From Campylobacterota bacterium (GTDB lineage Bacteria; Campylobacterota; Campylobacteria; Campylobacterales; Sulfurimonadaceae): DNA of 12,791 bases. Within the stretch, counting starts at the first letter, position 1. The number at the start of each line of letters is the position of its first letter. A program made the translations under genes and the position numbers. Of this stretch, positions 27 to 12,791 are shown in pieces. The stretch spans positions 1-12,791 of the forward strand of contig JAYEMF010000035.1 of NCBI GenBank assembly GCA_034717975.1, written 5' to 3'. Under the pieces are notes generated by a model. The model had not been told where the DNA came from, made no database searches, and saw nothing but the letters and a program-made list of their open reading frames with translations.

Positions 27-1970
27 TTAAAACAGGTACTCCACCCCAGCCCAGAATCGGCGCTCGATGACAGGGACTATGACACGGTTGCCAGGGGTGA
101 CCATATAATCCCACTCCAGTCCGTCGTCAAAGATATTTTCCCCTTTGAGATTGAATGTCAGGTCCCTCGTGGGATGATAGCGGACACCGGCACTGTAGTC
201 ATGGCCGTTGGAAACATATGCGTATCCTTCATGAATAATCAGTTCATTGAAGAGGTCAAAATTTCCGAAGCTGTTTAACATCCGGATGACACCCATATGA
301 TGACGGGCGTCACGGCCATCTTGCACAGGCGATTCGAGAAAAAATGTGCTGATCTGCAGTTCGAGTTTGTCTTTTTCCCGAAAGAAAAAGGTCTGCTCGA
401 GGGCGGCTGAGTGGCCGTATATATCTTTGTCGCTGTTTATCATCTTTCCATAGGTGGGACTGGCCGGATCTGCATCGAGGATCGGCGTATCTTCATTTTT
501 ACCGTACCCTAAAACAAGCTTTGTCAGTGTCGTATCGGTATGATAGGCAAACTCCTGAAAGATGGAGTAGTAGGCCTCTTTGTCAAGATCTGCATTGCCA
601 TACTGCGTTGAAGTGGTCATATAGGGCTCTGATGAAAACTCCTGATGGGAGAGAAAGGTTTTGGCTACCCAGTGCTCATCGGTATAGATGTACCCCAGAC
701 GTCCCTGAAAGGTCTCCTGATCATCCACACTGCTCTGCTTTCGATGATAATGCTGTCCCATCAGTGAAAAGGTCACCATCTGATGCTCATCGATGCTGTA
801 CTCATCCTGCAGAAAAAGGGAGTAGACGTCTTCGCTATAGTAGGGCTGATCGGTAGGTAAAGGGAAAGGAGTCGGCGGTGGCGGATCAATTAAATATATA
901 TCTGCATCGGTATCGGTCGAATCAAAATGTTTATGTCGAAACTGTATGCCTCCGCTTAGGGTATGCTCTTCAAAATGCCATGTTTTTTTGACTCCGGCTG
1001 TATAGCTGTCCTCCTTGCTTTGCTGATCGAGTGAGTAGAGGGCAAGCGTGCCAATTCCCGGACGAACGGTTAATGCAGGATTTGTTGGAGCGTAATCAAA
1101 GTCATACTCACCGGTTTTATTAAGAAATGAGAGATCCAATGTCACTGTTTTGTCTTGAAAGGTCGAATGTGATGCAACGCTGATATAGCGGGCCTTTGTA
1201 GCAGTCTCCTGCGGAGTCGCCCCTACTAGAGTACCCAAAAAGGCATCTCCTTTTTGATGGTAACCGTGTATGTCGAGGCGGTGGTTTTCTGAAGCGATCG
1301 AAGCGAAAACCCGTTCTTTTCGTGCATTGCGTTTGAGTGTTTCACCGTCATGGCTGAACTCTTTACGTTCATTGTCATATCGGCTGGCATAGGCAAAATA
1401 AGAGAGACCGTCAAACTCATCGGCATAATAGGCACTTTCGAGGTTGGCACCATAGGTTCCGCCCTGTGCTCTGATGCGTCCGCCGGCATCGTGTTCGGCG
1501 GTTTTACTGTAAAGCCGGATGACGATGGTGGCCGGTTCGATCCCGAAGTCAAAAGAGGGGAAGCCTTCATAGATCTCGATATGGTCGATAAAATCGAGTT
1601 CCATGTCGCCAAAATGGACAAATCCGCTTCCGGCAAGGGGTGTATACAGCTCATTGTCATTCAGGTAGAGCCTGACGCTTTTACTGTAATAGGTGACGGG
1701 ATCCTGATTGAGCATGTCCGGCTGCCCCATCCGGTTTTCTGCGTAGTGAAAAAAGCGCAGCGATTTGATGATGTCCTTAAGGGTATTGGCCTGCATCCGC
1801 TCCAGATCGTCACGTGTGTAGACGATGAGGTTACCGGCAGCTTCATCTTTGGTTTTGTTGGAAAGCTCAGAGGCTTTTTCGTAGGCAGTGAGCAGGTTGT
1901 CGATCTCTTCAGAGTATGCTGATACGGTCAGTATCGATGTGAGTATAAAAAGATGAAGCAGTTTCTGCAT
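27..1970 (-). CDS. TonB-dependent receptor-like outer-membrane beta-barrel protein with plug domain (647 aa)
   Basis: Sec signal peptide (MQKLLHLFILTSILTVSAYS). Plug-like segments (LIVYTRDDLERMQANTLKDII; IDHIEIYEG). Amphipathic aromatic-rich beta-strands and a C-terminal ENIFD...RRFWAGVEYLF ending in Phe. SD AAGGA at 1976-1980 (-). Confidence 0.85.
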   Translation of the reverse strand: MQKLLHLFILTSILTVSAYSEEIDNLLTAYEKASELSNKTKDEAAGNLIVYTRDDLERMQANTLKDIIKSLRFFHYAENRMGQPDMLNQDPVTYYSKSVRLYLNDNELYTPLAGSGFVHFGDMELDFIDHIEIYEGFPSFDFGIEPATIVIRLYSKTAEHDAGGRIRAQGGTYGANLESAYYADEFDGLSYFAYASRYDNERKEFSHDGETLKRNARKERVFASIASENHRLDIHGYHQKGDAFLGTLVGATPQETATKARYISVASHSTFQDKTVTLDLSFLNKTGEYDFDYAPTNPALTVRPGIGTLALYSLDQQSKEDSYTAGVKKTWHFEEHTLSGGIQFRHKHFDSTDTDADIYLIDPPPPTPFPLPTDQPYYSEDVYSLFLQDEYSIDEHQMVTFSLMGQHYHRKQSSVDDQETFQGRLGYIYTDEHWVAKTFLSHQEFSSEPYMTTSTQYGNADLDKEAYYSIFQEFAYHTDTTLTKLVLGYGKNEDTPILDADPASPTYGKMINSDKDIYGHSAALEQTFFFREKDKLELQISTFFLESPVQDGRDARHHMGVIRMLNSFGNFDLFNELIIHEGYAYVSNGHDYSAGVRYHPTRDLTFNLKGENIFDDGLEWDYMVTPGNRVIVPVIERRFWAGVEYLF

Positions 1971-2028: not shown

Positions 2029-2502
2029 TTAAAACATCTTTTTGATCGCGTCGGTCATTCCGATATGAAGATTATAGTTGGCGATGGGGAAATCAAGCGA
2101 TTCGTTTTCAAGGTCAACCGTGTAGCTGCTCAGATAGGAGCCGAGTGGTTCGAGATCAATGTGTTTGTACTCAGCACTCTTTTCAGCGGCATAGTCGGTT
2201 CGTTCGAGCCTGCCGCTGGCGTTGCTTTTCTGCAAAGTGAAAGCGAGGGTTTTCAGACTCAGAAGGTCACACCAGCCAAGCAGCAGTTCGGGGGTGAGTG
2301 TTTCCACCGGTTTTCCTTCCGGAGTAAAGAGAAGCTGCTGCTCTTTGAGTGGCTCTAAAACAGAGAGAAGAGCTTCCAGAAAAGGGACTGTTTTTTGTAC
2401 CCAGAACGGGGACTCGTCAGAGTTTTCCAGAGCGAGTGTTATAGCGCTGATGATCTCTTCTGAAGTGGCATCGTGGAGCAGTTGGGACATCGGTTTAAAC
2501 AT
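2029..2502 (-). CDS. Hypothetical all-helical protein (157 aa), resembling the all-alpha domain of DotL/IcmO/TrbC coupling proteins
   Basis: Clean ORF starting 2 nt after the S4 gene stop, with no signal peptide or TM segment. The blocks FWVQKTVPFLEALLSVL, DLLSLKTLA, LEPLGSYL and NLHIGMT match, in order, the DotL helical insert as I recall it. Alternative ATG at 2490. The confidence value refers to the CDS; the family call is less certain. Confidence 0.8.
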   Translation of the reverse strand: MFKPMSQLLHDATSEEIISAITLALENSDESPFWVQKTVPFLEALLSVLEPLKEQQLLFTPEGKPVETLTPELLLGWCDLLSLKTLAFTLQKSNASGRLERTDYAAEKSAEYKHIDLEPLGSYLSSYTVDLENESLDFPIANYNLHIGMTDAIKKMF

Positions 2503-2504
2503 GG

Positions 2505-2711
2505 CTAGTCTGTCACTTCAATGGTCACATCAGCGATGGTAATGGTGTCTCCGGCGATGATCTTGGCACGCTTGCGGGTCTCGACCTCTCCGTTTCGAAA
2601 TACCATCTCATTGGCGATCAGCTGTTTGGCTTCACCGCCGCTGTCGACAAGGTCGAGAAGTTTGATAAGTTTGTAGAGTTCAATGTAGTCGTCTTTGAGT
2701 TGATAGGTCAT
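2505..2711 (-). CDS. Stand-alone S4-domain RNA-binding protein (YbcJ/YaaA family, 68 aa)
   Basis: YIELYKLIK...SGGEAKQLI...V.RNGEVETRKRAKI..GD.I is the hallmark S4_2/YbcJ pattern. Confidence 0.92.
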   Translation of the reverse strand: MTYQLKDDYIELYKLIKLLDLVDSGGEAKQLIANEMVFRNGEVETRKRAKIIAGDTITIADVTIEVTD

Positions 2712-2737: not shown

Positions 2738-2770
2738 ATTGTAGAATGGTAACAGATAATGTGTTAAAAT
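2738..2770. promoter_or_regulatory. Divergent promoter pair: TACAAT (-, 2738-2743) and extended -10 TGtTAAAAT (+, 2762-2770)
   Basis: AT-rich 101-bp gap between divergent genes, with -10-like hexamers correctly oriented on each strand. SD AAAGGA at 2801-2806 serves the cytochrome gene. Confidence 0.5.
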
Positions 2771-3445: not shown

Positions 3446-3468
3446 CTGAAGAGATTAAATCTCTTCAG
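3446..3468. repeat. 10-bp hairpin CTGAAGAGAT-TAA-ATCTCTTCAG spanning the stop codon of the FedB-like gene
   Basis: Arms at 3446-3455 and 3459-3468 are exact reverse complements. Confidence 0.6.
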
Positions 3469-3982
3469 TAATAATGCTATAGCCAAGTTCATGCATACGC
3501 ATATCGATCATCTCGACAGCTTTTTCAATGGTCTGGTAGCTGATGTCGGGCAGCTTTCCTCCCCACATCGCTTCGGCTTCATTAAACCCCTGTAAGATAC
3601 CGGCCCGTCCGGCACGCAGCAGGTCTTCATTGTCGCCGGCACCGTTAAGCACAAAGTTGGCGATCCGCTCAGAGGTCTGGGTGACTCCGAAAAAACCATC
3701 TTCCGAGACAAGCTCGGCAGCTTCATCCTGTGAGAGTTCGGCGATCGGTCCGCCGTTATAGCCAATACCCTCCAGAAAACTTTGGAACTCCTCGTAATCA
3801 GCCTGAAAATTGTTATCTGCAATACCGCTTTGAAATTCAAACGAGGTGTAACTGTAGCTGAACGACTGCTCCTGCATCTGAAAACTCAACTGCTTATCAT
3901 TACCCTTCTCGCTTTTATTGGTTTGAAGAGAGGTGTAATTTGTATGAAGGTTCATGGTTGAAAATGATGCTGAGATATTCAT
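3455..3982 (-). CDS. Cj0391c/FedB-like protein (DUF5610-type; family often labelled 'hydrogenase-4 component G'), 175 aa
   Basis: The C-terminal motif GY.G.PI.ELSQDEAAELVSEDGFFGV..TSERIA.FV..GAGD....L..GR.G...GF.EAE.MWGGKLP.IS..TI is recognised from Campylobacterota homologs. I moved the start from 4117 to the ATG at 3982 because AAGGAG lies at 3989-3994 (-) and the longer ORF overlaps the upstream gene. Confidence 0.82.
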   Translation of the reverse strand: MNISASFSTMNLHTNYTSLQTNKSEKGNDKQLSFQMQEQSFSYSYTSFEFQSGIADNNFQADYEEFQSFLEGIGYNGGPIAELSQDEAAELVSEDGFFGVTQTSERIANFVLNGAGDNEDLLRAGRAGILQGFNEAEAMWGGKLPDISYQTIEKAVEMIDMRMHELGYSIITEEI

Positions 3983-4041
3983 GGCTGACTCCTTTATTGA
4001 TTGTGAAGCCACATCAATTGAGAGACTTCTATCTAGCAGCA

Positions 4042-4068
4042 ATATCGGCAGTTTTAAGTATTTACTAA
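4042..4068 (-). promoter_or_regulatory. Putative sigma28 (FliA) promoter TTAG-N15-GCCGATAT
   Basis: Minus-strand GCCGATAT at 4042-4049 matches the consensus GCCGATAA at 7 of 8 positions. The -35 is weak (TTAG versus TAAA). Confidence 0.55.
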
Positions 4069-4622
4069 AGCAGACCCCGGCGTTTGAGCTCAGCCGCTGC
4101 TGCTTCACCGATTTCATGCTTCAGGATGTCGATAGCGGTCGGATTCTCTGTGAGTTGCAGGGCTGTGCCATAGGGATATTTACGTTCGATGCTTTGCAGC
4201 TCTTCATCAGATACCTGCTGGATTGTCTCATCGGAGAGTTTTGCCTTTGTGACATTGAAATGGTTGAGCTTTCGCTGCTCTTCGATCTCGAAAAAGAAAA
4301 GATTTGCAGGTTTCTTGTTTCTGCCAAAAGCGACATCAAGATACTCCTGGTAGGTATAACCCCTCTGTTTTGTATAATGCTTGAAGGCCTTTTTGCTCAT
4401 CTGCAGCAGTTTTTCTCTAAGAGCAGCTTGTTCATCTACTCTTGCTTTTTCATCGTCTGCAATGGCATCTTTAAACTTCTCAATACGCTTGACTTTTTCC
4501 TGGGCATGGACTCTTTTTGATCGTTTGCGCAGCCGACTTATGAGAAAAATGATGAGAATAAGTACGGCTATGATGCCAGCGGCAGTAAAGATAAGGGAGT
4601 TGTCGGAAATCATGTTTTGCAT
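4065..4622 (-). CDS. Hypothetical single-pass membrane protein (185 aa)
   Basis: N-terminal hydrophobic helix (LIFTAAGIIAVLILIIFLI), then a basic cluster (RLRKRSKR) and a charged helical or coiled-coil segment. It fills the gap between co-oriented genes. No family recognised. Confidence 0.78.
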   Translation of the reverse strand: MQNMISDNSLIFTAAGIIAVLILIIFLISRLRKRSKRVHAQEKVKRIEKFKDAIADDEKARVDEQAALREKLLQMSKKAFKHYTKQRGYTYQEYLDVAFGRNKKPANLFFFEIEEQRKLNHFNVTKAKLSDETIQQVSDEELQSIERKYPYGTALQLTENPTAIDILKHEIGEAAAAELKRRGLL

Positions 4623-4686: not shown

Positions 4687-4959
4687 TTACCAGGTGTCAC
4701 GCGGTGGTCGAGGCTCTTTCGGACGGGCTTCGTTGACACAGATATGCCGGCCGTCAATTTCATAATTTTCAAGTTTTTTTATGGCTTCATCGGCTTCATC
4801 GTCGTTAGGCATCTCAACAAATCCAAATCCGCGCTGTCGTCCCGTTTCCCTGTCATTGATCATGTTGACCGAGGTGACCTGGCCATACTGTTCGAAGAGT
4901 CTCCTAAGCTCCTCTTCCGTTTGGGTGAAAGGGATGTTGCCTACATAGATCTGCGTCAT
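4687..4959 (-). CDS. RRM (RNP-1) RNA-binding protein, 90 aa
   Basis: RNP2 IYVGNI, DRETGR, RNP1 RGFGFVEM and VNEARP. Start set at the ATG at 4959 by SD AAGGAG at 4967-4972 (-), rather than the TTG at 4992. Confidence 0.95.
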   Translation of the reverse strand: MTQIYVGNIPFTQTEEELRRLFEQYGQVTSVNMINDRETGRQRGFGFVEMPNDDEADEAIKKLENYEIDGRHICVNEARPKEPRPPRDTW

Positions 4960-4991
4960 GTTACGACTCCTTGTAACAAAATAATACGCCA

Positions 4992-5015
4992 ATTTTATCG
5001 GAAAGATATTAGAAT
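4992..5015. promoter_or_regulatory. Back-to-back -10 boxes: TAAAAT (-, 4992-4997, RRM gene) and TAGAAT (+, 5010-5015, pta)
   Basis: Hexamers are correctly oriented in the 86-bp AT-rich divergent gap. Confidence 0.45.
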
Positions 5016-5045
5016 AGTGAAGAAACTATATTTTTGGAACCATTC

Positions 5046-7133
5046 ATGAAAATAAAAAGCCTTTATATCGCTTCGCTTGAACCGATGGCCGGAAGTCTGT
5101 TTGTGACGGTCGGGATGACAGAGCTCCTCAAACGTCGGCTTGACAAGATCGCCTTTTTTTCTCCGGTTATAGAGTGTGACAAGAAGCCTGATTGCGATAC
5201 CGTCTTTATGCTAGAGCACTTTTCAATCGATATGCCCTATGAAGATACCTATGGGTTTACGGTTGATGAGGTTGAGTCGATGGTGGCCGACGGCCGTGGA
5301 AAAGAGGTGGTTGAGACTCTGATCAAAAAGTTTAAACAGCTTGAGCGTAATTATGATTTTGTGATCTGCGAGGGGTTGAACCGTATCAGTTTTACAGCGA
5401 TTTTTGATTTTGATATCAATCACCTTCTTGCAAAAAACTTTAACAGTCCCTATATAAGTATTTTGAATGGTAAAGAGAAAGAGAGTTCGGAACTGATAGA
5501 AGAGATTCAGATTGAAGAGCAGGTGAACCGTCGGGCGGGGGTCAATCACTTCGCTACGTTTGTCAACAGGATCGATGAGAAGGCATTTGATGAAATCAGT
5601 CAAAAACCGCCTGAGACAGGAAGGCCGGTCTATCTGCTTCCGGAAGTTGAGGAGCTTGACCGTCCGTCGGTAGGGGAGGTGATGCAGACACTGGATTGTC
5701 GTCATATCTATGGTGCTCCCGAAGATCTTTCACGTGAAGTCCGACAGAGTAAAATCGCTGCGATGACACTTGAAAACTATCTGCTTCATATTGAGGAGGG
5801 TGACCTGATCATTGTACCGGGTGACCGTGCAGACATCATCATCACTTCACTGGCCGCTGTCTACTCCCAAAAATATCCACACATTGCCGGTCTTTTACTA
5901 ACGGGAGGTCTCTCTCCCAGGAAGCAGGTTATGAAGCTCTTTAAGGGATTGAACTATTTTCCTATTCCGATCCTCAGCATTGAAACCGATACCTATACGA
6001 CAGCCGTGGCAGTAGATGAAGTTCCCTCCAGGATCAGGCCGCACAGTGACCGTAAGATAGCTCTGGCCATGGGGCTTTTCAATACTCACGTCGATATAGA
6101 GCAGGTCGAGAGCAAGCTAAATACCGTTTCGTGTAATGTTGTTACGCCAAGTATGTTCGAGTTTAACCTGTTTGAACAGGCGCGGTCCGTGCGTAAAAAG
6201 ATCGTCCTGCCTGAAAGTGCTGATGACAGGATCCTGCAGGCTGCGGAGATTCTGCTCCGCCGTGATGTGGTCGATATCGTTTTGCTCGGTGATCCAAAAG
6301 AGATCGCCCATAAAAGTGCGATGCTGGGTCTTGATATCAGCCGTGCCGAGATTATTAAACCGGATGAATCACCGTTAATGAAGAAGTTTACGGATGAATT
6401 TTATGAACTTCGTAAAGCCAAAGGTCTGACACGGGATACTGCAGAAGATGCAATGATGCATCTGACCTATTTTGCGACAATGATGGTGCATCTCGGGTAT
6501 GCGGACGGAATGGTCTCGGGAGCGATCCATACGACAGGTGAAACGATCCGTCCGGCACTGCAGATCATTAAGACCCGGCCGGGGATCTCCATTGTCTCTA
6601 GTGTCTTCTTTATGTGTATGGATACCCGTGTGCTGGTCTATGGTGATTGTGCGGTCAATCAGGATCCAAATGCTGAAGAGCTTGCCGAGATCGCGATCTC
6701 ATCAGCGGAAACGGCAGGGATGTTCAACGTCGATCCGAAGATCGCTATGCTCTCTTACTCGACGGGGGATTCGGGAACCGGCGATGATGTTGAAAAGGTA
6801 CGCAAAGCGACGAAGATCGTTAAAAAAAGCCGACCGGACCTGCTTATAGAGGGGCCGATCCAGTATGATGCGGCGATTGAACCGAGTGTGGCTAAGAAAA
6901 AACTGCCAAAAAGTGATGTGGCCGGCAAGGCGACGATCTTTATCTTCCCGGATCTCAATACGGGGAACAATACCTACAAGGCTGTTCAACGCTCGTCGGG
7001 TGCTGTGGCGATCGGGCCGGTACTGCAGGGTCTGAAAAAACCGGTCAATGACCTTAGCCGCGGCTGTCTTGTGGCCGATATCGTCAATACGGTTGCGATT
7101 ACGGCCATTCAGGCACAGGGGATTGAGAAATGA
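5046..7133 (+). CDS. pta: Phosphate acetyltransferase, long form (BioD-like N-domain, DRTGG, PTA_PTB), 695 aa
   Basis: LIIVPGDRADI (DRTGG-type), IVLPESADDRIL, GDCAVN, GPIQYDAA, FIFPDLNTGNNTYKAVQR and QGLKKPVNDLSRG. ATG at 5046 (MKIKSLYI) preferred over the TTG at 5034. Confidence 0.97.
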   Translation: MKIKSLYIASLEPMAGSLFVTVGMTELLKRRLDKIAFFSPVIECDKKPDCDTVFMLEHFSIDMPYEDTYGFTVDEVESMVADGRGKEVVETLIKKFKQLERNYDFVICEGLNRISFTAIFDFDINHLLAKNFNSPYISILNGKEKESSELIEEIQIEEQVNRRAGVNHFATFVNRIDEKAFDEISQKPPETGRPVYLLPEVEELDRPSVGEVMQTLDCRHIYGAPEDLSREVRQSKIAAMTLENYLLHIEEGDLIIVPGDRADIIITSLAAVYSQKYPHIAGLLLTGGLSPRKQVMKLFKGLNYFPIPILSIETDTYTTAVAVDEVPSRIRPHSDRKIALAMGLFNTHVDIEQVESKLNTVSCNVVTPSMFEFNLFEQARSVRKKIVLPESADDRILQAAEILLRRDVVDIVLLGDPKEIAHKSAMLGLDISRAEIIKPDESPLMKKFTDEFYELRKAKGLTRDTAEDAMMHLTYFATMMVHLGYADGMVSGAIHTTGETIRPALQIIKTRPGISIVSSVFFMCMDTRVLVYGDCAVNQDPNAEELAEIAISSAETAGMFNVDPKIAMLSYSTGDSGTGDDVEKVRKATKIVKKSRPDLLIEGPIQYDAAIEPSVAKKKLPKSDVAGKATIFIFPDLNTGNNTYKAVQRSSGAVAIGPVLQGLKKPVNDLSRGCLVADIVNTVAITAIQAQGIEK

Positions 7134-8311
7134 AAATTCTAGTGCTCAACTCCGGCAGCTCTTCGATAAAATTTCAGCTCTTTGAGATGGAAGATGAACG
7201 TGTTCTGGCATCGGGACTGATCGAGCAGATCGGTGAAATCAGCGGGCGTGCGACACTTAAAAGCAGTGATGCAGAACCGGTCACCAAAGTGTGTGGTATT
7301 ACTGATCATCAGGTTGGTTTAGAGATGATGCAGGAGATGTTAAAAGAGGCCGGTTTCGGTTCGTTCGATGCAATCGGACACCGTGTCGTTCATGGCGGTG
7401 AGGTATTTCACGTACCCACACTTATTGATGATGAAGTCTTGCAGGTGATTGAAGGACTCTCGCCGCTTGCCCCCTTACACAATCCGGCCAATGCTGCCGG
7501 TATTCGTGTAGCAAAAAGTGTTAATCCAACGCTTCCTCAGGTCGCAGTTTTTGATACGGCTTTTCATCAGACGCTTCCCAAACACGCTTATTTATATGCA
7601 CTGCCGTATGAACTGTATGAGAAGGCAGATATCCGTCGCTACGGCTTTCATGGAACATCCCACGCTTTTGTCGCTCAAAGTGCAGCGGAGTATCTCAATC
7701 AACCGCCGGAGTCACTGAATCTCATCACTTTGCATCTGGGCAACGGTGCGAGTGCAACAGCCATCAAAGCTGGAAAAAGCATTGATACTTCGATGGGCAT
7801 GACACCGCTTGAAGGGCTGGTGATGGGAACACGCAGCGGTGATCTTGATCCGGCAATCCTGTTTTATCTTGCCCGTAAATATGGGATGAGTATTGATGAA
7901 CTTGATCAGCTTTTGAACAAGCAAAGCGGCTTGAAGGGGATCAGCGGGAAAAACGATCTGCGCAGTGTCACTGAAGCGGCGGCATCGGGAGATGAACAGG
8001 CCAAAACGGCTATGGCGATGATGGGTTACCGCATCAAGAAATATATAGGTGCCTATACGGCAGCTTTGGGACGCGTAGATGCTATTGTCTTCACCGGAGG
8101 GATAGGTGAACATTCGGTTGAGATGAGAAATCTTGCCTGTGAGGGGTTGTCTGATGGGCTTGGGATTATGCTTGATCCGGATAAAAACAGTGCCTATAAG
8201 CGTGGTGTCATGGAGCTTCATTCTGATCAGAGCCGAGTGAAAGTACTGGTGGTGCCGACCAACGAGGAGCTTGAAATCGCGCGTCAGACAAAAATGATGA
8301 TCACATCATGA
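7130..8311 (+). CDS. ackA: Acetate kinase, 393 aa
   Basis: [73 protein letters not shown] and TNEE. ATGA overlap with pta. Confidence 0.98.
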
Positions 8312-8757
8312 AGTGCCCATGCGGTTCCGGTCAGCCGTTTGAACTCTGCTGCGGCAGGTTCATTAACGGGAGTGCAAAAGCAGCCACGCCACTGGAACTG
8401 ATGCGCTCTCGTTACAGTGCCTATGCAACCGGAGCAGGTGCTTACCTGGTAGAGACGACTACGTGTGAAAACCGTTATGAGGGAGATGCAGAACTTATCG
8501 GCGAATTTGCCCGGAAAAGTGACTGGATCAAACTCGAGATCGTCGATGAAGCCACCGAGGATGAGACGGGAATGGTCGAGTTCAAAGCGTATTACCGTGA
8601 AAACGGTGAGATCAGACTCCATCATGAAAAGAGCCTTTTTCTGAAAGAGGAGGGGGAGTGGCGTTACGATCAGGGAACACTGTTCGAGACGAAAATAGGG
8701 CGTAATGAAGCCTGCCCGTGTGGCAGCGGGAAGAAATATAAACGCTGTTGCGGCTAA
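8308..8757 (+). CDS. ychJ: YchJ family protein with SEC-C metal-binding motifs at both ends, 149 aa
   Basis: N-terminal [31 protein letters not shown] and W.Y..G. C-terminal [22 protein letters not shown] overlap with ackA. Confidence 0.93.
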
Positions 8758-8760
8758 TTA

Positions 8761-8844
8761 GGAAAGAGGGAAGGGGAAAGCGTGAAGAGGAGAGAGGGGA
8801 GAGTAATAACATGGCTTGGGGAAGTGAAAAGAGAAAGGGGAGAT
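8761..8844 (+). repeat. Degenerate purine-rich heptamer tandem array
   Basis: GGAAAGA GGGAAGG GGAAAGC GTGAAGA GGAGAGA GGGGAGA GTAATAA CATGGCT TGGGGAA GTGAAAA GAGAAAG GGGAGAT. Ten of the 12 units start with G in one register. Confidence 0.65.
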
Positions 8845-10045
8845 GATGTGGAAACTGTTCGATAAAACCAAAATCCTCAAGAGTGATCTGCTCTCCTTTA
8901 AAAATGAACCGCTTTCCGGACTCTCTGTCCTCTTACTGATCGTTCTGGATATCTTTATCTTCTCCAATGTGATGGTCGGCATTGAGGGTGAAACGGCCAA
9001 ATCACCTAGCCACTATGTTTATTACCCGAGTAGCTGCAGTAACCATTTTGATGCACCAAAAACAAGTTACAGCGGATTTGGTGATGTTGTACGTTACCGT
9101 AAATATACTTTTGAAGAGCAGGTCAGTCCGCACTGCGAAGAACTGCGTCAGAAGATCAGCCGATTCAGCCAGACAGCTCACTTTAAAGAGCGTCTCAAAA
9201 GTATCCGTGCCATTGATGATAAACTGACGCAAAATAACAAACGTCTCAGGGTGATATCCCAGCAGTACAACACCCGGCTCTTTGAACGAATCGCCCTGAT
9301 GCCGAACAATCATGCCCTGCGCAGTGCAAAAGATGAGTATGAAGCGCTTAATTCAGACAATAAAAAACTAAATGAGAAAAAAGCGGCTATCCCCTCAGTG
9401 ACAACGCTGGATGGTTACCGTGAATATCGTGATTATGTGGTGAGGAATAAAGCGGCGTTCAAAGTGGCAAAAGAGTCTTATGAGTTTTGGCAGCCTTTCA
9501 GAGAGTTTGCTCATGTATTGACCTTTGTCCTGCCGCTGCTTCTTGTCTTTGGATTTTTCTATTATCGCAGCAAGCGTAAGGAGTTACGGGGTGAACACTA
9601 TAATCCGATTGTGAAGATCATAAGCACACACATTTCGCTGATCCTCGCACTTCCACTGATCTGGTACACCATCTATATTATCTACCATGTCATGCCAAAG
9701 ACTCTGCTGCGGCAGATCATCGACTACCTTGTCTCCGTCGGACTGCTCTCTATCCTGAACTATCTGGCTATTGCAGCGGTTGTCCTTGTGTTTGGCGTGC
9801 TCATCTATTTCATCCAAAAACGTACCATCAGGCACAAAAAAATCGGCAGTGAGAAGAACATTAAAAAGATTATTTCCTTTTCACAGTGTCCGCGCTGTAC
9901 TTTCAAAGTGGATTATTCAAAGCCGCATTGTCCGTTTTGCGGGGAGAAACTGTTGGATGCTTGTAAGTCATGCGGAGAGATGACGATCAGAGGACTTCCT
10001 TATTGCCAGCAGTGCGGGGAGTCATCCACGGTAAATCAAAACTAA
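8843..10045 (+). CDS. Multi-pass membrane protein with a large helical/coiled-coil loop and a C-terminal double zinc ribbon, 400 aa
   Basis: TM1 (LSVLLLIVLDIFIF), a long soluble loop with two Cys, three further TM segments, then four CxxC motifs (CPRC, CPFC, CKSC, CQQC). SD-like GGAG at 8839-8842 favours the second ATG at 8846. Confidence 0.85.
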   Translation: MMWKLFDKTKILKSDLLSFKNEPLSGLSVLLLIVLDIFIFSNVMVGIEGETAKSPSHYVYYPSSCSNHFDAPKTSYSGFGDVVRYRKYTFEEQVSPHCEELRQKISRFSQTAHFKERLKSIRAIDDKLTQNNKRLRVISQQYNTRLFERIALMPNNHALRSAKDEYEALNSDNKKLNEKKAAIPSVTTLDGYREYRDYVVRNKAAFKVAKESYEFWQPFREFAHVLTFVLPLLLVFGFFYYRSKRKELRGEHYNPIVKIISTHISLILALPLIWYTIYIIYHVMPKTLLRQIIDYLVSVGLLSILNYLAIAAVVLVFGVLIYFIQKRTIRHKKIGSEKNIKKIISFSQCPRCTFKVDYSKPHCPFCGEKLLDACKSCGEMTIRGLPYCQQCGESSTVNQN

Positions 10046-10069
10046 GATTTATATAAAATAGCGCATGCC

Positions 10070-10135
10070 GTCATTCCTGCGAAGGCAGGAATCTTGAGTA
10101 TTTGAGGCTTAGATTCCTGCCTTCGCAGGAATGAC
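10070..10135. repeat. 66-bp palindromic element: perfect 25-bp inverted repeat, each arm with an internal hairpin (dRS3/RPE-like)
   Basis: GTCATTCCTGCGAAGGCAGGAATCT (10070-10094), a 16-nt spacer, then AGATTCCTGCCTTCGCAGGAATGAC (10111-10135). Internal hairpin ATTCCTGC-GAAG-GCAGGAAT. Confidence 0.9.
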
Positions 10136-10213
10136 TGAGCGTACACCTTAAGCAGAGGTGAGTTTTGAATTACCATGGGAGTCATCTGAGTAGATATTTT
10201 AGTAATACTTTTC

Positions 10214-10222
10214 TGGTATAGT
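10214..10222 (+). promoter_or_regulatory. Extended -10 promoter TGgTATAGT for the pglG-like gene
   Basis: TG-n-TATAGT lies 30 nt upstream of the ATG at 10253. It is overlapped by a 6-bp inverted repeat AATACT/AGTATT (10204-10209 and 10220-10225). Confidence 0.5.
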
Positions 10223-10252
10223 ATTGATGATTTTAAATAAGGTCGGTTATTA

Positions 10253-11161
10253 ATGGTCGCATCAGATATTCAAAACTTTTCCGAAGGTCGTACAAAGGCG
10301 AGGGCCTATTTCTGTTATCTCTTTTCAAAAAATATTCCCAACCGGTTGCCATCACTCTCAGAAGAGATGATCATGCCCCGTCTTTTAAAGATCAAAGCTG
10401 ATCTTGAAAACTGTGAGGGTGTCTATCTTTTAGATACCCGCGGTGTTCAGATCACACCGACATTTACAGCAGACGGACAGATAGATGATGATGCCGGAAA
10501 GATCCGTGCAGACCGGGCTTACTACTATCGTGCGGTGCGCGAAGGGCGATGTACCATAACCGACCCTTATCCGTCACTCATAACGCAGGAGTTGACGGTA
10601 ACCGCTTCTCAGCCTATCTTTGATGAGAATGGCGATATTAAATATGTAGCCTGTCTGGATATGTCGCTTGATGAGGTTATAAAGATATCGCGTCAAAACA
10701 TTTTTGACATATTTTTCAGCAAGCTGTTCAAGTATTCGTATGCAGGCTTTTCACTGGCGCTTATTGCCGTGGCACTGCTGCTCTTTTTCAAGGGAGTACA
10801 GAGCTTTTTTATTCATGAGATAACACCTACACATTTTGAGATAAAAGATGTCTTTGAAGCGACGATCCTCCTGACACTGGCACTCGCTATTTTTGATCTG
10901 GCAAAGACATTAATAGAAGAGGAGGTGCTTGGCCGGCATAAAGAGCACAATATATCCGGACCGCATAAAACAATGGTCAGGTTTCTGGGTTCCATCATCA
11001 TCGCCCTGTCAATCGAAGCATTGATGTTAGTGTTTAAGTTTGCGATCACCGAGCCGGAGAAACTGATGTATGCGATGTTTATAGTCGGTGGTGTCTCGAT
11101 GCTGCTGATCAGTTTGGCCGTGTATATAAAATTTACAAAAGTGAGGAATGCAGAAGAGTAG
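10253..11161 (+). CDS. pglG: PglG-like protein: N-terminal Cache/PDC-type sensor domain plus about 4 C-terminal TM helices, 302 aa
   Basis: DIQ.F.E.R.KARAY..Y....N.PN.LP N-terminus as recalled for C. jejuni PglG. Cache motifs YLLD..G.Q, R.DRAYY..A, ITDPYPS, T.S.PI.D..G and CLD. C-terminal hydrophobic block (LTLALAIFDLAKT; RFLGSIIIALSIEALMLVFK). Confidence 0.8.
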   Translation: MVASDIQNFSEGRTKARAYFCYLFSKNIPNRLPSLSEEMIMPRLLKIKADLENCEGVYLLDTRGVQITPTFTADGQIDDDAGKIRADRAYYYRAVREGRCTITDPYPSLITQELTVTASQPIFDENGDIKYVACLDMSLDEVIKISRQNIFDIFFSKLFKYSYAGFSLALIAVALLLFFKGVQSFFIHEITPTHFEIKDVFEATILLTLALAIFDLAKTLIEEEVLGRHKEHNISGPHKTMVRFLGSIIIALSIEALMLVFKFAITEPEKLMYAMFIVGGVSMLLISLAVYIKFTKVRNAEE

Positions 11162-11173
11162 TTTTGCATCTTT

Positions 11174-11242
11174 AGAGGTGCCCTTTATCTCCTTGACACC
11201 AACCCTTCGATATAATCACGAAAATTAATAGAGGGCACCTCT
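11174..11242. repeat. 15-bp imperfect inverted repeat (AGAGGTGCCCTTTAT / ATAGAGGGCACCTCT) enclosing the ABC-F promoter
   Basis: Arms at 11174-11188 and 11228-11242 are complementary at 14 of 15 positions, with a perfect 11-bp core and a 39-nt spacer. A related copy, AGAGGCGCCCTT, lies at 2011-2022. Confidence 0.7.
11211..11216 (+). promoter_or_regulatory. sigma70 -10 box TATAAT for the ABC-F gene
   Basis: Perfect hexamer in a GaTATAAT context, 61 nt upstream of the ATG at 11278. Confidence 0.6.
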
Positions 11243-11277
11243 GACGCCTTCTAAACATCACAGAGAGAATTACAACT

Positions 11278-12791
11278 ATGGTACAAGTAACAAAATTAAC
11301 AATGCGATACGGCAGCCGTGTGCTGTTCAGCGAGATCAACCTCAAGCTCGACCGTCACAAACGTTACGGTCTTATCGGTGCAAACGGTGCGGGTAAAACG
11401 ACATTTCTGAAGATCTTAAGTGGTGAGATCAAAGAGTATGAGGGTGACATCTCTATTGAACCTGGCCTGAAGGTCGGTGTCCTTGGGCAAAATCAGTATG
11501 CTTTTGAAGAGTTCACTATCGCCGATGCCGTCTTGTTTGGGAACAAGCGCCTCTACGATGCGATCAAAGAGAAAGAGGAGCTTTACACTACGGGCGATTT
11601 TGAAGATGATGCCGTCAACAACCGCCTTGCAGAACTTGAGGTAGTCTGTGTTGAAGAAGATCCGACCTACGAGTATGATGTCAACATCACGAAAGTTCTT
11701 GAAAATGTCGGCATCCCGGCAGAAAAACATCATGACCTGATGTCGACACTCGACACCTCTGACAAATTCAAGGTCCTTCTGGCGCAGGTCCTCTACCCGA
11801 AACCCGATGTCCTCTTCCTCGATGAGCCTACCAATAACCTCGATATCGAAACGATCGGCTGGCTGGAAAATGAACTCAAACGTCATGAAGGTACCCTGGT
11901 CGTTATCTCGCATGACCGACACTTTATCAACTCGGTCGTTACGAACATTCTTGACGTTGACTATATGAAGATCCGTGAGTTTACGGGTACGTACGATGAC
12001 TGGTATATTGCGGCCAATGTCATGGCAAAACAGGCAGAGATGGACCGTGACAAAAAGATGAAAGAGAAAGAGCAGCTTGAAGCTTTCGTCCGCCGTTTCT
12101 CCGCCAATGCTTCCAAAGCCAAACAGGCAACATCCCGCCAGAAACAGCTGGATAAACTAAATATCGAAGATATCAAACCCTCATCCCGCCGTGACCCGAG
12201 CATTGTGTTCAAGGGGAAACGCCAGATGGGTGATGAAGCACTGGATGTCAATGTTTCTCATGACTATGGTGAAGGTGCTGTACTTACAGATTTCAACCTC
12301 CATGTAGAACCAGGTGAAAAGATCGCGCTGATCGGTGCCAACGGTGTCGGAAAATCGACACTGTGCAAGATCATCATGGAAGAGATGAAACCAAGCAGCG
12401 GAACGGTTAAGTGGGGTGCAACGGTAGAGCCGAGTTACTTCCCACAGGATACGACTGACCGAATCCAGAGCAGTGACACCCTGTATGAGTGGCTGCGTGC
12501 CTATGACCCGAAGCGTGAGATCGCCGAGATCCGTAACTGTCTGGGACGTATGCTCTTTAACGGTGAGCAGCAGGAGAAGAGTGCAACGAACATTTCCGGG
12601 GGTGAAAAACACCGTATGATGCTCTCTAAAATGATGCTTGAAAACGGTAATTTCCTCGTACTTGATGAACCGACCAACCACCTTGACCTTGAGGCCATTG
12701 TCGCTTTGGGTGAAGCGCTCTACAACTTTGATGGCAATGTGATCTGTGTCTCGCATGACCGTGAACTTCTCGATGCTTTTGCCGGTCGTAT
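11278..12791 (+). CDS. ABC-F family translation-factor ATPase (YbiT-like), 3'-truncated by the window edge
   Basis: Translated by hand from the ATG at 11278 (MVQVTKLTMRYG...). Walker A GANGAGKT and GANGVGKS, Walker B LFLDEPTNNLD and LVLDEPTNHLD, two SHDR motifs, linker FVRRFSANASKAKQATSR and signature ISGGEK. No TM segment, and open to the end of the window. Confidence 0.95.
   Translation, partial: MVQVTKLTMRYGSRVLFSEINLKLDRHKRYGLIGANGAGKTTFLKILSGEIKEYEGDISIEPGLKVGVLGQNQYAFEEFTIADAVLFGNKRLYDAIKEKEELYTTGDFEDDAVNNRLAELEVVCVEEDPTYEYDVNITKVLENVGIPAEKHHDLMSTLDTSDKFKVLLAQVLYPKPDVLFLDEPTNNLDIETIGWLENELKRHEGTLVVISHDRHFINSVVTNILDVDYMKIREFTGTYDDWYIAANVMAKQAEMDRDKKMKEKEQLEAFVRRFSANASKAKQATSRQKQLDKLNIEDIKPSSRRDPSIVFKGKRQMGDEALDVNVSHDYGEGAVLTDFNLHVEPGEKIALIGANGVGKSTLCKIIMEEMKPSSGTVKWGATVEPSYFPQDTTDRIQSSDTLYEWLRAYDPKREIAEIRNCLGRMLFNGEQQEKSATNISGGEKHRMMLSKMMLENGNFLVLDEPTNHLDLEAIVALGEALYNFDGNVICVSHDRELLDAFAGR

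Follow-up and report, generated by a model that had tools for sequence, protein, structure and literature searches.

A stand-alone homologue of the coupling-protein all-alpha domain, conserved across the Sulfurimonadaceae and co-inherited with a second small protein

INTRODUCTION

Can one domain of a conjugative coupling protein leave the ATPase to which it belongs and persist as a gene of its own? The question is raised by a 12,791-nucleotide (nt) stretch of DNA, hereafter the window, which is the entire contig JAYEMF010000035.1 (C35) of a Sulfurimonadaceae genome (Campylobacterota bacterium, GCA_034717975.1; assembly of 2.52 Mb, 99.9% complete). A preliminary description, made from the letters and the translated open reading frames (ORFs), singled out the gene at positions 2029 to 2502 and proposed that its product is the all-alpha domain, or AAD, from a DotL/IcmO/TrbC-type coupling protein, free of its ATPase and apparently domesticated. 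We examine that proposal here.

No part of a type IV coupling protein is understood less well than the AAD. Its presumed role is to choose what a conjugation or effector-secretion machine carries, and its position within a hexameric ATPase anchored in the membrane makes it difficult to study. Passages of two reviews (PMC7434980, PMC12624023) and of a structure paper (PMC7280309) place AADs at the cytoplasmic base of the coupling-protein hexamer and record that they have been proposed to recognize XVIPCD effectors in Xanthomonas. In the same passages of the two reviews, AADs of other coupling proteins recruit substrates and adaptors, and that of Cagbeta docks the small regulator CagZ (PMC12624023). 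For DotL, the passages of the structure paper describe regions at both ends of the AAD that contribute to the interface with DotM, and the binding of DotM, DotN and IcmSW by a long C-terminal tail (PMC7280309).

RESULTS

A short single-copy gene encodes a compact, acidic, helical protein

The ORF list and its translation give a 157-amino-acid (aa) protein, here called P0001, that starts with ATG on the minus strand and is exactly the one quoted in the preliminary description. The gene and the parts of it discussed below are as follows.

2029..2502, minus strand: gene for the stand-alone AAD protein P0001, stop codon at 2029-2031
2098..2469, minus strand: gap-free stretch aligning to the AAD insert of I-type and type IVB (T4B) coupling proteins (residues 12-135, BLASTP against the coupling protein of metagenome locus L104)
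2305..2334, minus strand: short beta-hairpin LLFTPEGKPV (residues 57-66; DSSP strands 58-59 and 65-66 of the model)
2059..2094, minus strand: family-specific invariant motif DFPIANYNLHIG, which precedes the last helix (residues 137-148)

The genome holds one copy of the gene. A Walker A pattern is absent from the 157 residues, and the peak 19-residue Kyte-Doolittle mean is 1.22 (grand average of hydropathy, -0.1), so that a membrane helix is not expected. P0001 carries a net charge of -12; across the family the median isoelectric point (pI) is 5.0 and the median net charge -5.9. An AlphaFold2 model was computed from a 37-sequence alignment of the stand-alone family (A1), which also served as a search profile and contains 31 invariant columns. 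The model has a mean predicted local distance difference test (pLDDT) score of 92.4 and a predicted template modeling score of 0.87, and it shows eight helices and one short hairpin in a compact, soluble fold that is nearly all helix. The initial picture of a soluble helical protein without Walker motifs was thus accurate. What defines a coupling protein, a nucleotide-binding domain (NBD) with Walker A and B motifs and an N-terminal transmembrane anchor, is missing from P0001.

P0001 is homologous to the AAD insert of I-type and T4B coupling proteins

Searching A1 against 1.84 billion representative proteins returned 37 matches, mostly family members or short pieces. The longest three are P0141 (743 aa, E 3e-16, residues 218-359), P0152 (703 aa, E 4e-8) and P0157 (587 aa, E 5e-5). 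They are coupling proteins by their Pfam domains (TrwB_AAD_bind, TraG-D_C and T4SS-DNA_transf), and their top NCBIfam model, at 1e-48 to 3e-52 and below cut-off, is NF041447, TrbC_conju, the I-type relative of DotL. In each, the stretch matched by A1 sits between the P-loop and TraG-D_C, which is the place where AADs are inserted. With HMMER, P0141 matches Protein Data Bank (PDB) chain 6sz9_A, IcmO (DotL), at 6.5e-50, and it is through P0141 that the sequence link to DotL runs.

Pairwise comparisons gave the same result. P0001 aligned with residues 225-362 of P0141 by BLASTP (28% identity over 138 residues, E 3e-18), and A1 aligned with P0152 by hhalign with a probability of 97.6 and an E value of 3e-12. 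The closest coupling protein, of 674 aa, came from a metagenome scan with a coupling-protein alignment and is encoded by locus L104; its residues 214-337 are 38% identical to P0001 over 124 gap-free residues (BLASTP, E 1e-24). Its gene is preceded by an IcmL/DotI-like gene and followed by a prepilin-type gene, a setting of T4B or I-type character. The AADs of the nearest coupling proteins are acidic, with pI values of 4.5 to 5.9.

The stand-alone family and the nearest coupling proteins have in common W34 and the motifs LSVLxPLR, LLFxPxG and SN. The hairpin motif is found in P0152, P0143 and the L104 protein, and its residues L57, L58, P61, E62 and G63 are invariant across A1. Two further invariant motifs, AFT and DFPxxxYNLHxG, belong to the stand-alone family itself. 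In the latter, D137, F138, P139, Y143, N144, L145, H146 and G148 are invariant in A1, and H146 aligns with the histidine of the QHG motif at which coupling proteins re-enter the ATPase domain; the hhalign alignment with P0152 extends to NLH/RQH, and the corresponding DotL stretch, EQHGF, is at 334-338.

The preliminary description had also matched five blocks of P0001, in order, to DotL. Three of the blocks, GSSSMLTQLVVSLM, MWKGRAIAFVEALMRLL and EQHGFITMQLVRSF, occur letter for letter in the HMMER alignment of P0141 with 6sz9_A and align transitively at the positions that had been given for them. For the fifth block, the structural alignment described below ends by pairing model residue 157 with DotL residue 347, as had been stated.

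The fold points to the same relatives. When the P0001 model was compared with 48,161 solved chains by VIA-align, DotL (7ovb_A) came first, with a Z score of 9.4 and a root-mean-square deviation of 3.0 over 119 of the 157 residues (DotL 210-347, 16% identity). Cagbeta chains followed (6jho_D, Z 5.9; 8dol_A, Z 5.8), and TrwB (1e9r_A) ranked eighth with Z 4.1 over its residues 185-288; the passage on TrwB in PMC7434980 gives its AAD as G184-G297. In the ESM Atlas, 18 of 30 feature matches were T4SS-DNA_transf clusters, and the structure search returned a cluster named 'IcmO (DotL)' with a TM score of 0.64 over 130 residues. P0001 is homologous to the AAD insert in sequence and in fold, as had been proposed; profiles, the fold and the reciprocal genome search with the L104 protein reported below agree on this.

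PADLOC and PHROGs scans of P0001 returned nothing at E values up to 1. One long match, P0150 (562 aa, eight matched stretches), was set aside as spurious, being a tandem-repeat protein. A few other matches lie apart. In P0148 (570 aa) an intein splicing domain comes after the AAD-like stretch, and an ATPase match is lacking. P0146 (159 aa), P0153 (171 aa) and P0155 (149 aa) are AAD-like and, as does P0148, fall outside the Sulfurimonadaceae family set; these three short proteins may be fragments or independent free-standing AADs. The L104 contig, which carries the coupling protein nearest the stand-alone family, has 16,219 bases, a low GC content (27-36%) and a T4B-like locus with features at 4798-5478, 9891-11915 and 12128-13831. 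Besides the IcmL/DotI-like gene it contains a pair of DUF285 genes and the gene for a protein of 567 aa whose N terminus is of the prepilin type, and upstream a helicase fragment with an intein end.

The domain stands alone among housekeeping genes

When P0141, P0152, P0157, P0148 and P0143 were searched against the window by tblastn, the matches fell at 2086-2472. None of the six frames held an ATPase (NBD) remnant; the other row below E 0.1 was a chance match to the P-loop of an ABC-F gene. The check for decayed ATPase sequence in the flanks, which the preliminary description had named as a way to expose a broken dotL or trbC, thus came back empty. Elsewhere in the genome, TrbC_conju matched nothing better than E 0.23, and PF10412 had no match over cut-off. 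Another contig (C93) encodes a 484-aa TraD-like P-loop ATPase (L083:475-1929, plus strand; SXT_TraD, 3.4e-41, below cut-off). A search of 36 family relatives and 24 other genomes did not find this ATPase, which is therefore probably part of a strain-specific integrated element, unrelated to the domain gene.

We then compared gene neighborhoods in 80 related loci, in 70 of which the gene caller recovered the AAD ORF. The commonest upstream neighbor was a DUF445 membrane protein gene on the opposite strand (46 of 70), and the commonest downstream neighbor, in 31 of 70, was a same-strand gene for a second small protein, c2. Beyond these two, at a greater distance from the AAD gene, are genes for ClpB, Xaa-Pro aminopeptidase (PepP), CheW and rhodanese proteins. 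The neighbors of the domain gene are housekeeping genes, and neither the related neighborhoods nor the window contain conjugation genes, the mating-pair-formation and relaxase context being absent. The domain is therefore stand-alone and free of surrounding conjugation genes, as first described.

The gene is old, family-wide and under purifying selection

A database search returned 414 relatives; among the 120 matches listed, lengths were 153 to 187 aa and every name was 'hypothetical'. The gene is encoded by 129 species-representative genomes. The titles of the 80 loci retained from these read Sulfuricurvum, Sulfurimonas, Sulfurimonadaceae, Helicobacteraceae or Campylobacterales, with one exception, a metagenome-assembled genome labeled Pseudomonadota. 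An even sample of the family placed the gene in 172 of 201 Sulfurimonadaceae genomes (about 86%), in 141 of the 155 that are of high quality, and in 21 of 23 genera; in genus g7 it is missing from most genomes (present in 4 of 17). When the phylum was sampled evenly, the gene occurred in 33 of 34 Sulfurimonadaceae, in 2 of 23 genomes of one other family and in none of 343 genomes from twelve others, and the family profile search of this sample matched no full-length coupling protein. The survey of the Campylobacterota that the preliminary description had called for therefore finds stand-alone copies throughout one family and nearly none elsewhere in the phylum.

In the reciprocal search, the L104 coupling protein matched 166 of the 201 family genomes. 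Among the matches listed, all but one span the AAD part only (query residues 177-365), in open frames of 122 to 248 aa; the lone exception is a 748-aa frame in one genome (G023) that covers the NBD. Nearly all genomes with the domain gene are thus without a detected TrbC/DotL-type ATPase.

The ratio of nonsynonymous to synonymous substitution rates (dN/dS, Nei-Gojobori) had a median of 0.12 and a range of 0.03 to 0.42, computed from 79 pairs with dS between 0.05 and 1.5, none of which included the window's own gene. A tree was built from the 37 stand-alone sequences together with eight AAD stretches taken from proteins that are longer or could not be placed. The stand-alone sequences fell on one side of a branch with support of 94/85, present in 98% of bootstrap trees. 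The domain gene is old, conserved, family-wide and under purifying selection. Phyletic spread, dN/dS and a single clade form the pattern expected of a single capture followed by vertical descent, which agrees with the apparent domestication suggested at the outset. We conclude that P0001 is almost certainly a genuine, functional, stand-alone AAD homologue.

A few genomes may depart from the single intact copy. In G024 (C81:178843-179214) the family profile matches as two neighboring pieces, each scoring lower, and G034, G163, G169 and G173 have two matches; split matches of this kind suggest that some genomes of genus g2, a small number, carry a copy that is frameshifted or in decay.

A second protein, c2, is inherited together with the domain

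The link to c2 is the main new finding of this work. The c2 family consists of alpha/beta proteins of 142 to 143 aa. In the 31 loci where c2 adjoins the AAD gene, the gap between the two is -38 to +9 nt in 28, mostly as overlaps of 1 to 8 nt. At any distance within the fetched locus, a same-strand c2 occurs in 48 of 80. Across the 201 family genomes, 170 have both genes and 25 neither, which leaves six discordant genomes, two with AAD only and four with c2 only; both AAD-only genomes are 76-81% complete.

DUF445 served as a control. All 17 genomes of genus g7 have it and none of the 10 of genus g10 does, whereas the AAD gene is present in 4 of 17 and 10 of 10, respectively; c2, like the AAD gene, is mostly missing from g7 and always present in g10. 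Given this different pattern, the joint absence of AAD and c2 is explained neither by assembly nor by some trait of the locus as a whole. These DUF445 absences hold for the query used, which also did not find the gene in the two other genomes of the window's own genus. The co-inheritance of AAD and c2 is strong but not conclusive evidence for a shared function, since related genomes are not independent.

The c2 model is a confident alpha/beta sandwich (pLDDT 92.7), and an alignment of the family (A2) shows a nearly invariant C-terminal GWSYSYN. Family libraries gave no match to c2. In the fold search, a ribosomal S6 permutant and ACT-like domains came out on top, with a best Z score of 5.1 that does not exceed background; Foldseek against PDB gave no row better than E 0.089, and the Atlas no usable match. 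A profile search found 1,380 c2 proteins, and the named ones among the 120 matches listed are all 'hypothetical'. A predicted AAD-c2 complex scored 0.00 against a mark of 0.32, in a run without controls, and weighs neither way. The coupling-protein alignment brought in 35 metagenome loci, of which only L104 has a close coupling protein, and none of them yielded a c2 homologue.

Other features of the window

Around the domain gene, the window contains three further features.

2505..2711, minus strand: gene for a 68-aa S4_2 (YbcJ-like) RNA-binding-fold protein, upstream of the domain gene (Pfam PF13275, 4.6e-25)
2738..2767, minus strand: promoter-like site upstream of the S4_2 gene (consensus match only, 10 of 12 hexamer positions)
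27..1970, minus strand: gene for a 647-aa outer-membrane receptor-like protein, downstream, part of the context and not of the module (weak Plug and TonB-dependent barrel matches, below cut-off)

The stop codon of the S4_2 gene lies 2 nt ahead of the start of the domain gene, and the two are therefore probably co-transcribed in this genome. The S4_2 protein also matches the NCBIfam models YaaA and YbcJ, both below cut-off. Its linkage to the domain gene is local, not general: of 80 related loci, 28 have an S4_2 gene within 5 kb, and in four (L015, L024, L032 and L049) it is directly adjacent. The region contains two promoter-like sites, the expected number being 1.1. The outer-membrane receptor-like gene begins 58 nt downstream of the domain gene and has a homologue downstream in 1 of 80 related loci.

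The remaining neighbors in the window include cytochrome b561, pta-ackA and ABC-F genes. A 220-aa ORF at 3455-4117 (minus strand) has a faint DUF5610 match, and two of the 80 related loci carry a homologue of it close to the AAD gene. A 185-aa ORF at 4065-4622 (minus strand) has one N-terminal hydrophobic stretch, and its end overlaps the 220-aa ORF by 53 nt; neither ORF has a clear family. Read from its translation, the 101-aa protein at 4687-4992 (minus strand) has an RRM-like sequence. This gene and the plus-strand genes at 5034-8311, 8308-8757 and 8843-10045 look, again from translations, like ordinary chromosomal genes; those on the plus strand include pta-ackA, whose stop and start overlap, a protein that has CxxC pairs at each end, and a membrane protein of 400 aa that ends in cysteine-rich, zinc-ribbon-like repeats. 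Four DNA sequencing runs, all from one study, contain the window stretch, and no RNA runs were listed.

DISCUSSION

Neither the AAD nor its fold is new. What the literature searched does not describe is a free-standing copy, family-wide and selected, that is paired with a second protein: judged by titles and the beginnings of abstracts, no paper among those listed describes a free-standing AAD, and Sulku_0570, the locus tag of a named relative, brought up no papers. This agrees with the earlier remark that the family had not been described. The homology is solid, and the function discussed below is inferred.

Among known systems, the AAD of IcmO/DotL (Dot/Icm T4B system; PDB 6SZ9 and 7OVB, chain A) is the best fold match, with an identical order of helices up to the QHG-type turn and the last helix. 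In DotL, however, the AAD is inserted between Walker A and Walker B of a membrane-anchored ATPase, whereas in P0001 the domain is the whole protein, and the hosts of P0001, unlike the DotL setting, have no detectable T4B coupling ATPase. The TrbC-type I-type coupling proteins (NF041447; P0141, P0152, P0157 and the L104 protein) are nearest in sequence, with 28-38% identity across the AAD. They are ATPases of 587 to 743 aa with a P-loop and TraG-D_C, both of which P0001 lacks. An acidic AAD is common to both groups, whereas AFT and DFPxxxYNLHxG are invariant motifs of the stand-alone family's own. Cagbeta, the VirD4 protein of Helicobacter pylori (PDB 6JHO and 8DOL), gives the second and third fold matches. 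Its AAD docks a small partner and serves as a working model for c2; unlike P0001, Cagbeta is a type IVA coupling protein with the AAD as part of the ATPase. As c2 has no detectable likeness to solved folds, we claim no likeness to CagZ. TrwB of plasmid R388 (PDB 1E9R) has its AAD at the same place in the coupling-protein architecture and matches weakly in fold. For the TrwB AAD a part in DNA binding has been proposed, whereas P0001 is strongly acidic and has no PF10412 match at E values up to 1.

These comparisons suggest how the gene may have arisen and what it may do. A single capture, close to the family's base, would have taken the domain from a conjugative element with a coupling protein resembling that of L104, and the domain would then have been put to a cellular use unrelated to conjugation. 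There P0001 would retain the ancestral job of the AAD, the binding of partner proteins, as an acidic helical adaptor acting with the co-inherited c2. One contact surface may be the conserved hairpin LLFTPEGKP. A second may be the new invariant motif DFPxxxYNLHxG, on the face that leads back to the ATPase in coupling proteins. Taken by itself, a protein-binding adaptor mechanism that involves c2 is plausible and falls somewhat short of probable. On balance we lean slightly towards the statement as a whole, namely that P0001 is a stand-alone AAD homologue, captured and domesticated, that acts as such an adaptor. We are more tentative in proposing that AAD and c2 form a new two-protein cellular module, derived from conjugation machinery and adopted family-wide for a housekeeping task.

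Two other functions have to be weighed against the adaptor. Genes for defense and interference are usually patchy and fast-evolving. The preliminary description considered a decoy, in which a free AAD would titrate the relaxosome or adaptor proteins of I-type elements, or poison their coupling protein, and so limit their spread. It is true that the nearest AADs belong to I-type and T4B coupling proteins, and that such coupling proteins seem rare in the family, with one NBD-covering match among the matches listed from 201 genomes. A passage of PMC7434980, citing Whitaker 2015, holds that AADs confer specificity for cognate relaxosome and accessory proteins, and in a passage of PMC12624023 the Cagbeta AAD is the binding site of the regulator CagZ. 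Coupling, however, occurs in the donor, so that a chromosomal decoy would act only once the element is already inside the cell, and this gene is near-universal, single-copy and syntenic, with a median dN/dS of 0.12. It had no match in PADLOC, and tight co-inheritance with c2 is not what a simple decoy predicts. We regard a decoy or fertility inhibitor as unlikely. A nucleic-acid-binding module, the other function raised initially, would bind DNA or RNA as proposed for the AAD of TrwB, together with the adjacent S4-fold protein. The 2-nt spacing from the S4_2/YbcJ-like gene and the presence of S4_2 genes within 5 kb in a third or so of the related loci speak for it, as does a weak likeness of the model to the N-terminal DNA-binding domains of XerA, XerD and integrases (XerA, XerD and IntI chains, Z 3.7-4.0 over 72-80 residues), a likeness also recorded for the TrwB AAD in the passage on it in PMC7434980. 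These Z scores, however, are within the range that VIA-align calls common for helical models, and neither the window ORFs nor the Pfam scan contained a recombinase domain. The family is acidic, as are the nearest coupling-protein AADs, and in related loci the commonest neighbors are DUF445 and c2, with direct S4_2 adjacency in only 4 of 80; this function seems to us slightly less likely again than a decoy. Both readings fit poorly because P0001 is acidic, near-universal in the family and slowly evolving, and we consider both less likely than an adaptor.

Two further explanations would tie the ORF more closely to a coupling protein. It could act in trans as one half of a split coupling protein, with an insert-less ATPase encoded elsewhere. 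The genome does encode the TraD-like ATPase on C93, and HerA- and FtsK-type ATPases have the same core fold, HerA chains reaching Z 3.4-5.3 against the P0001 model. But the C93 ATPase, not found in any of the 36 relatives and 24 other genomes, cannot be a conserved partner, and with about 260 residues between its Walker motifs it has room for an insert of its own; a TrbC/DotL-type ATPase was not found in this genome and is nearly absent from the family. A split coupling protein is thus highly unlikely. The ORF could also be a dead fragment of a broken trbC or dotL, since it covers only the middle of a coupling protein and a few relatives, such as G024, have frameshift-like split matches. That explanation is already contradicted and retains next to no probability: neither side of the gene holds an ATPase remnant, intact genes lie 2 nt and 58 nt away, lengths are steady at 153 to 187 aa among the 120 relatives listed, and there are 31 invariant columns, a dN/dS of 0.12 and a presence in 21 of 23 genera.

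Several observations weigh against the account of a captured AAD that works with c2, and they concern its two halves differently. On the side of homology, direct searches with P0001 were null: Pfam at E values up to 1 (no family, PF10412 TrwB_AAD_bind included), NCBIfam at E values up to 10, and tblastn against 72,556 plasmids at E values up to 10. A sequence search of PDB with P0001 and with the A1 profile, at E values up to 10, returned chance rows (E at least 0.67), DotL not among them. The link to textbook coupling proteins is therefore not visible directly. The fold check that had been suggested gave a divided answer, for VIA-align put DotL first while Foldseek of the model against PDB had a best E value of 0.39 and listed no coupling protein. 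VIA-align itself cautions that helical models often reach Z scores of about 14 by chance, so that a Z of 9.4 alone is not decisive; we give the fold match weight only because the sequence evidence agrees with it. In the tree, the outgroup branches are long, and P0153, a short AAD-like protein, adjoins the stand-alone clade with weak support (82/65). On the side of function, the argument is built on gene order and co-occurrence among related, non-independent genomes. In the genome to which the window belongs, c2 and the domain gene are on different contigs, c2 being on C88 (L091:1498-1929, minus strand, of genome G000) beside a GGDEF-EAL gene. The median pI of c2 is 4.9, and this acidity does not itself favor a tight pair with an acidic AAD protein.

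With these points taken into account, the AAD homologue with its co-inherited partner has consequences beyond this locus. The AAD-like protein and c2 each found a protein family without annotation, publicly 'hypothetical'. P0001 is a natural, soluble AAD of 157 residues that has long been under selection in free-living sulfur oxidizers without a matching secretion system, which makes it an easy target for structural and binding work and offers a simple route to AAD function. Were the decoy reading true, the gene would be a chromosomal, family-wide brake on I-type conjugation. If AAD and c2 do form the two-protein module, P0001 would be the first coupling-protein recruitment domain to work without its motor and a minimal system for recognition by T4B AADs, and the module might be, for example, a substrate or adaptor receptor for another machine. 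The finding means that pieces of the machinery of mobile elements can be excised at domain boundaries and fixed as core genes.

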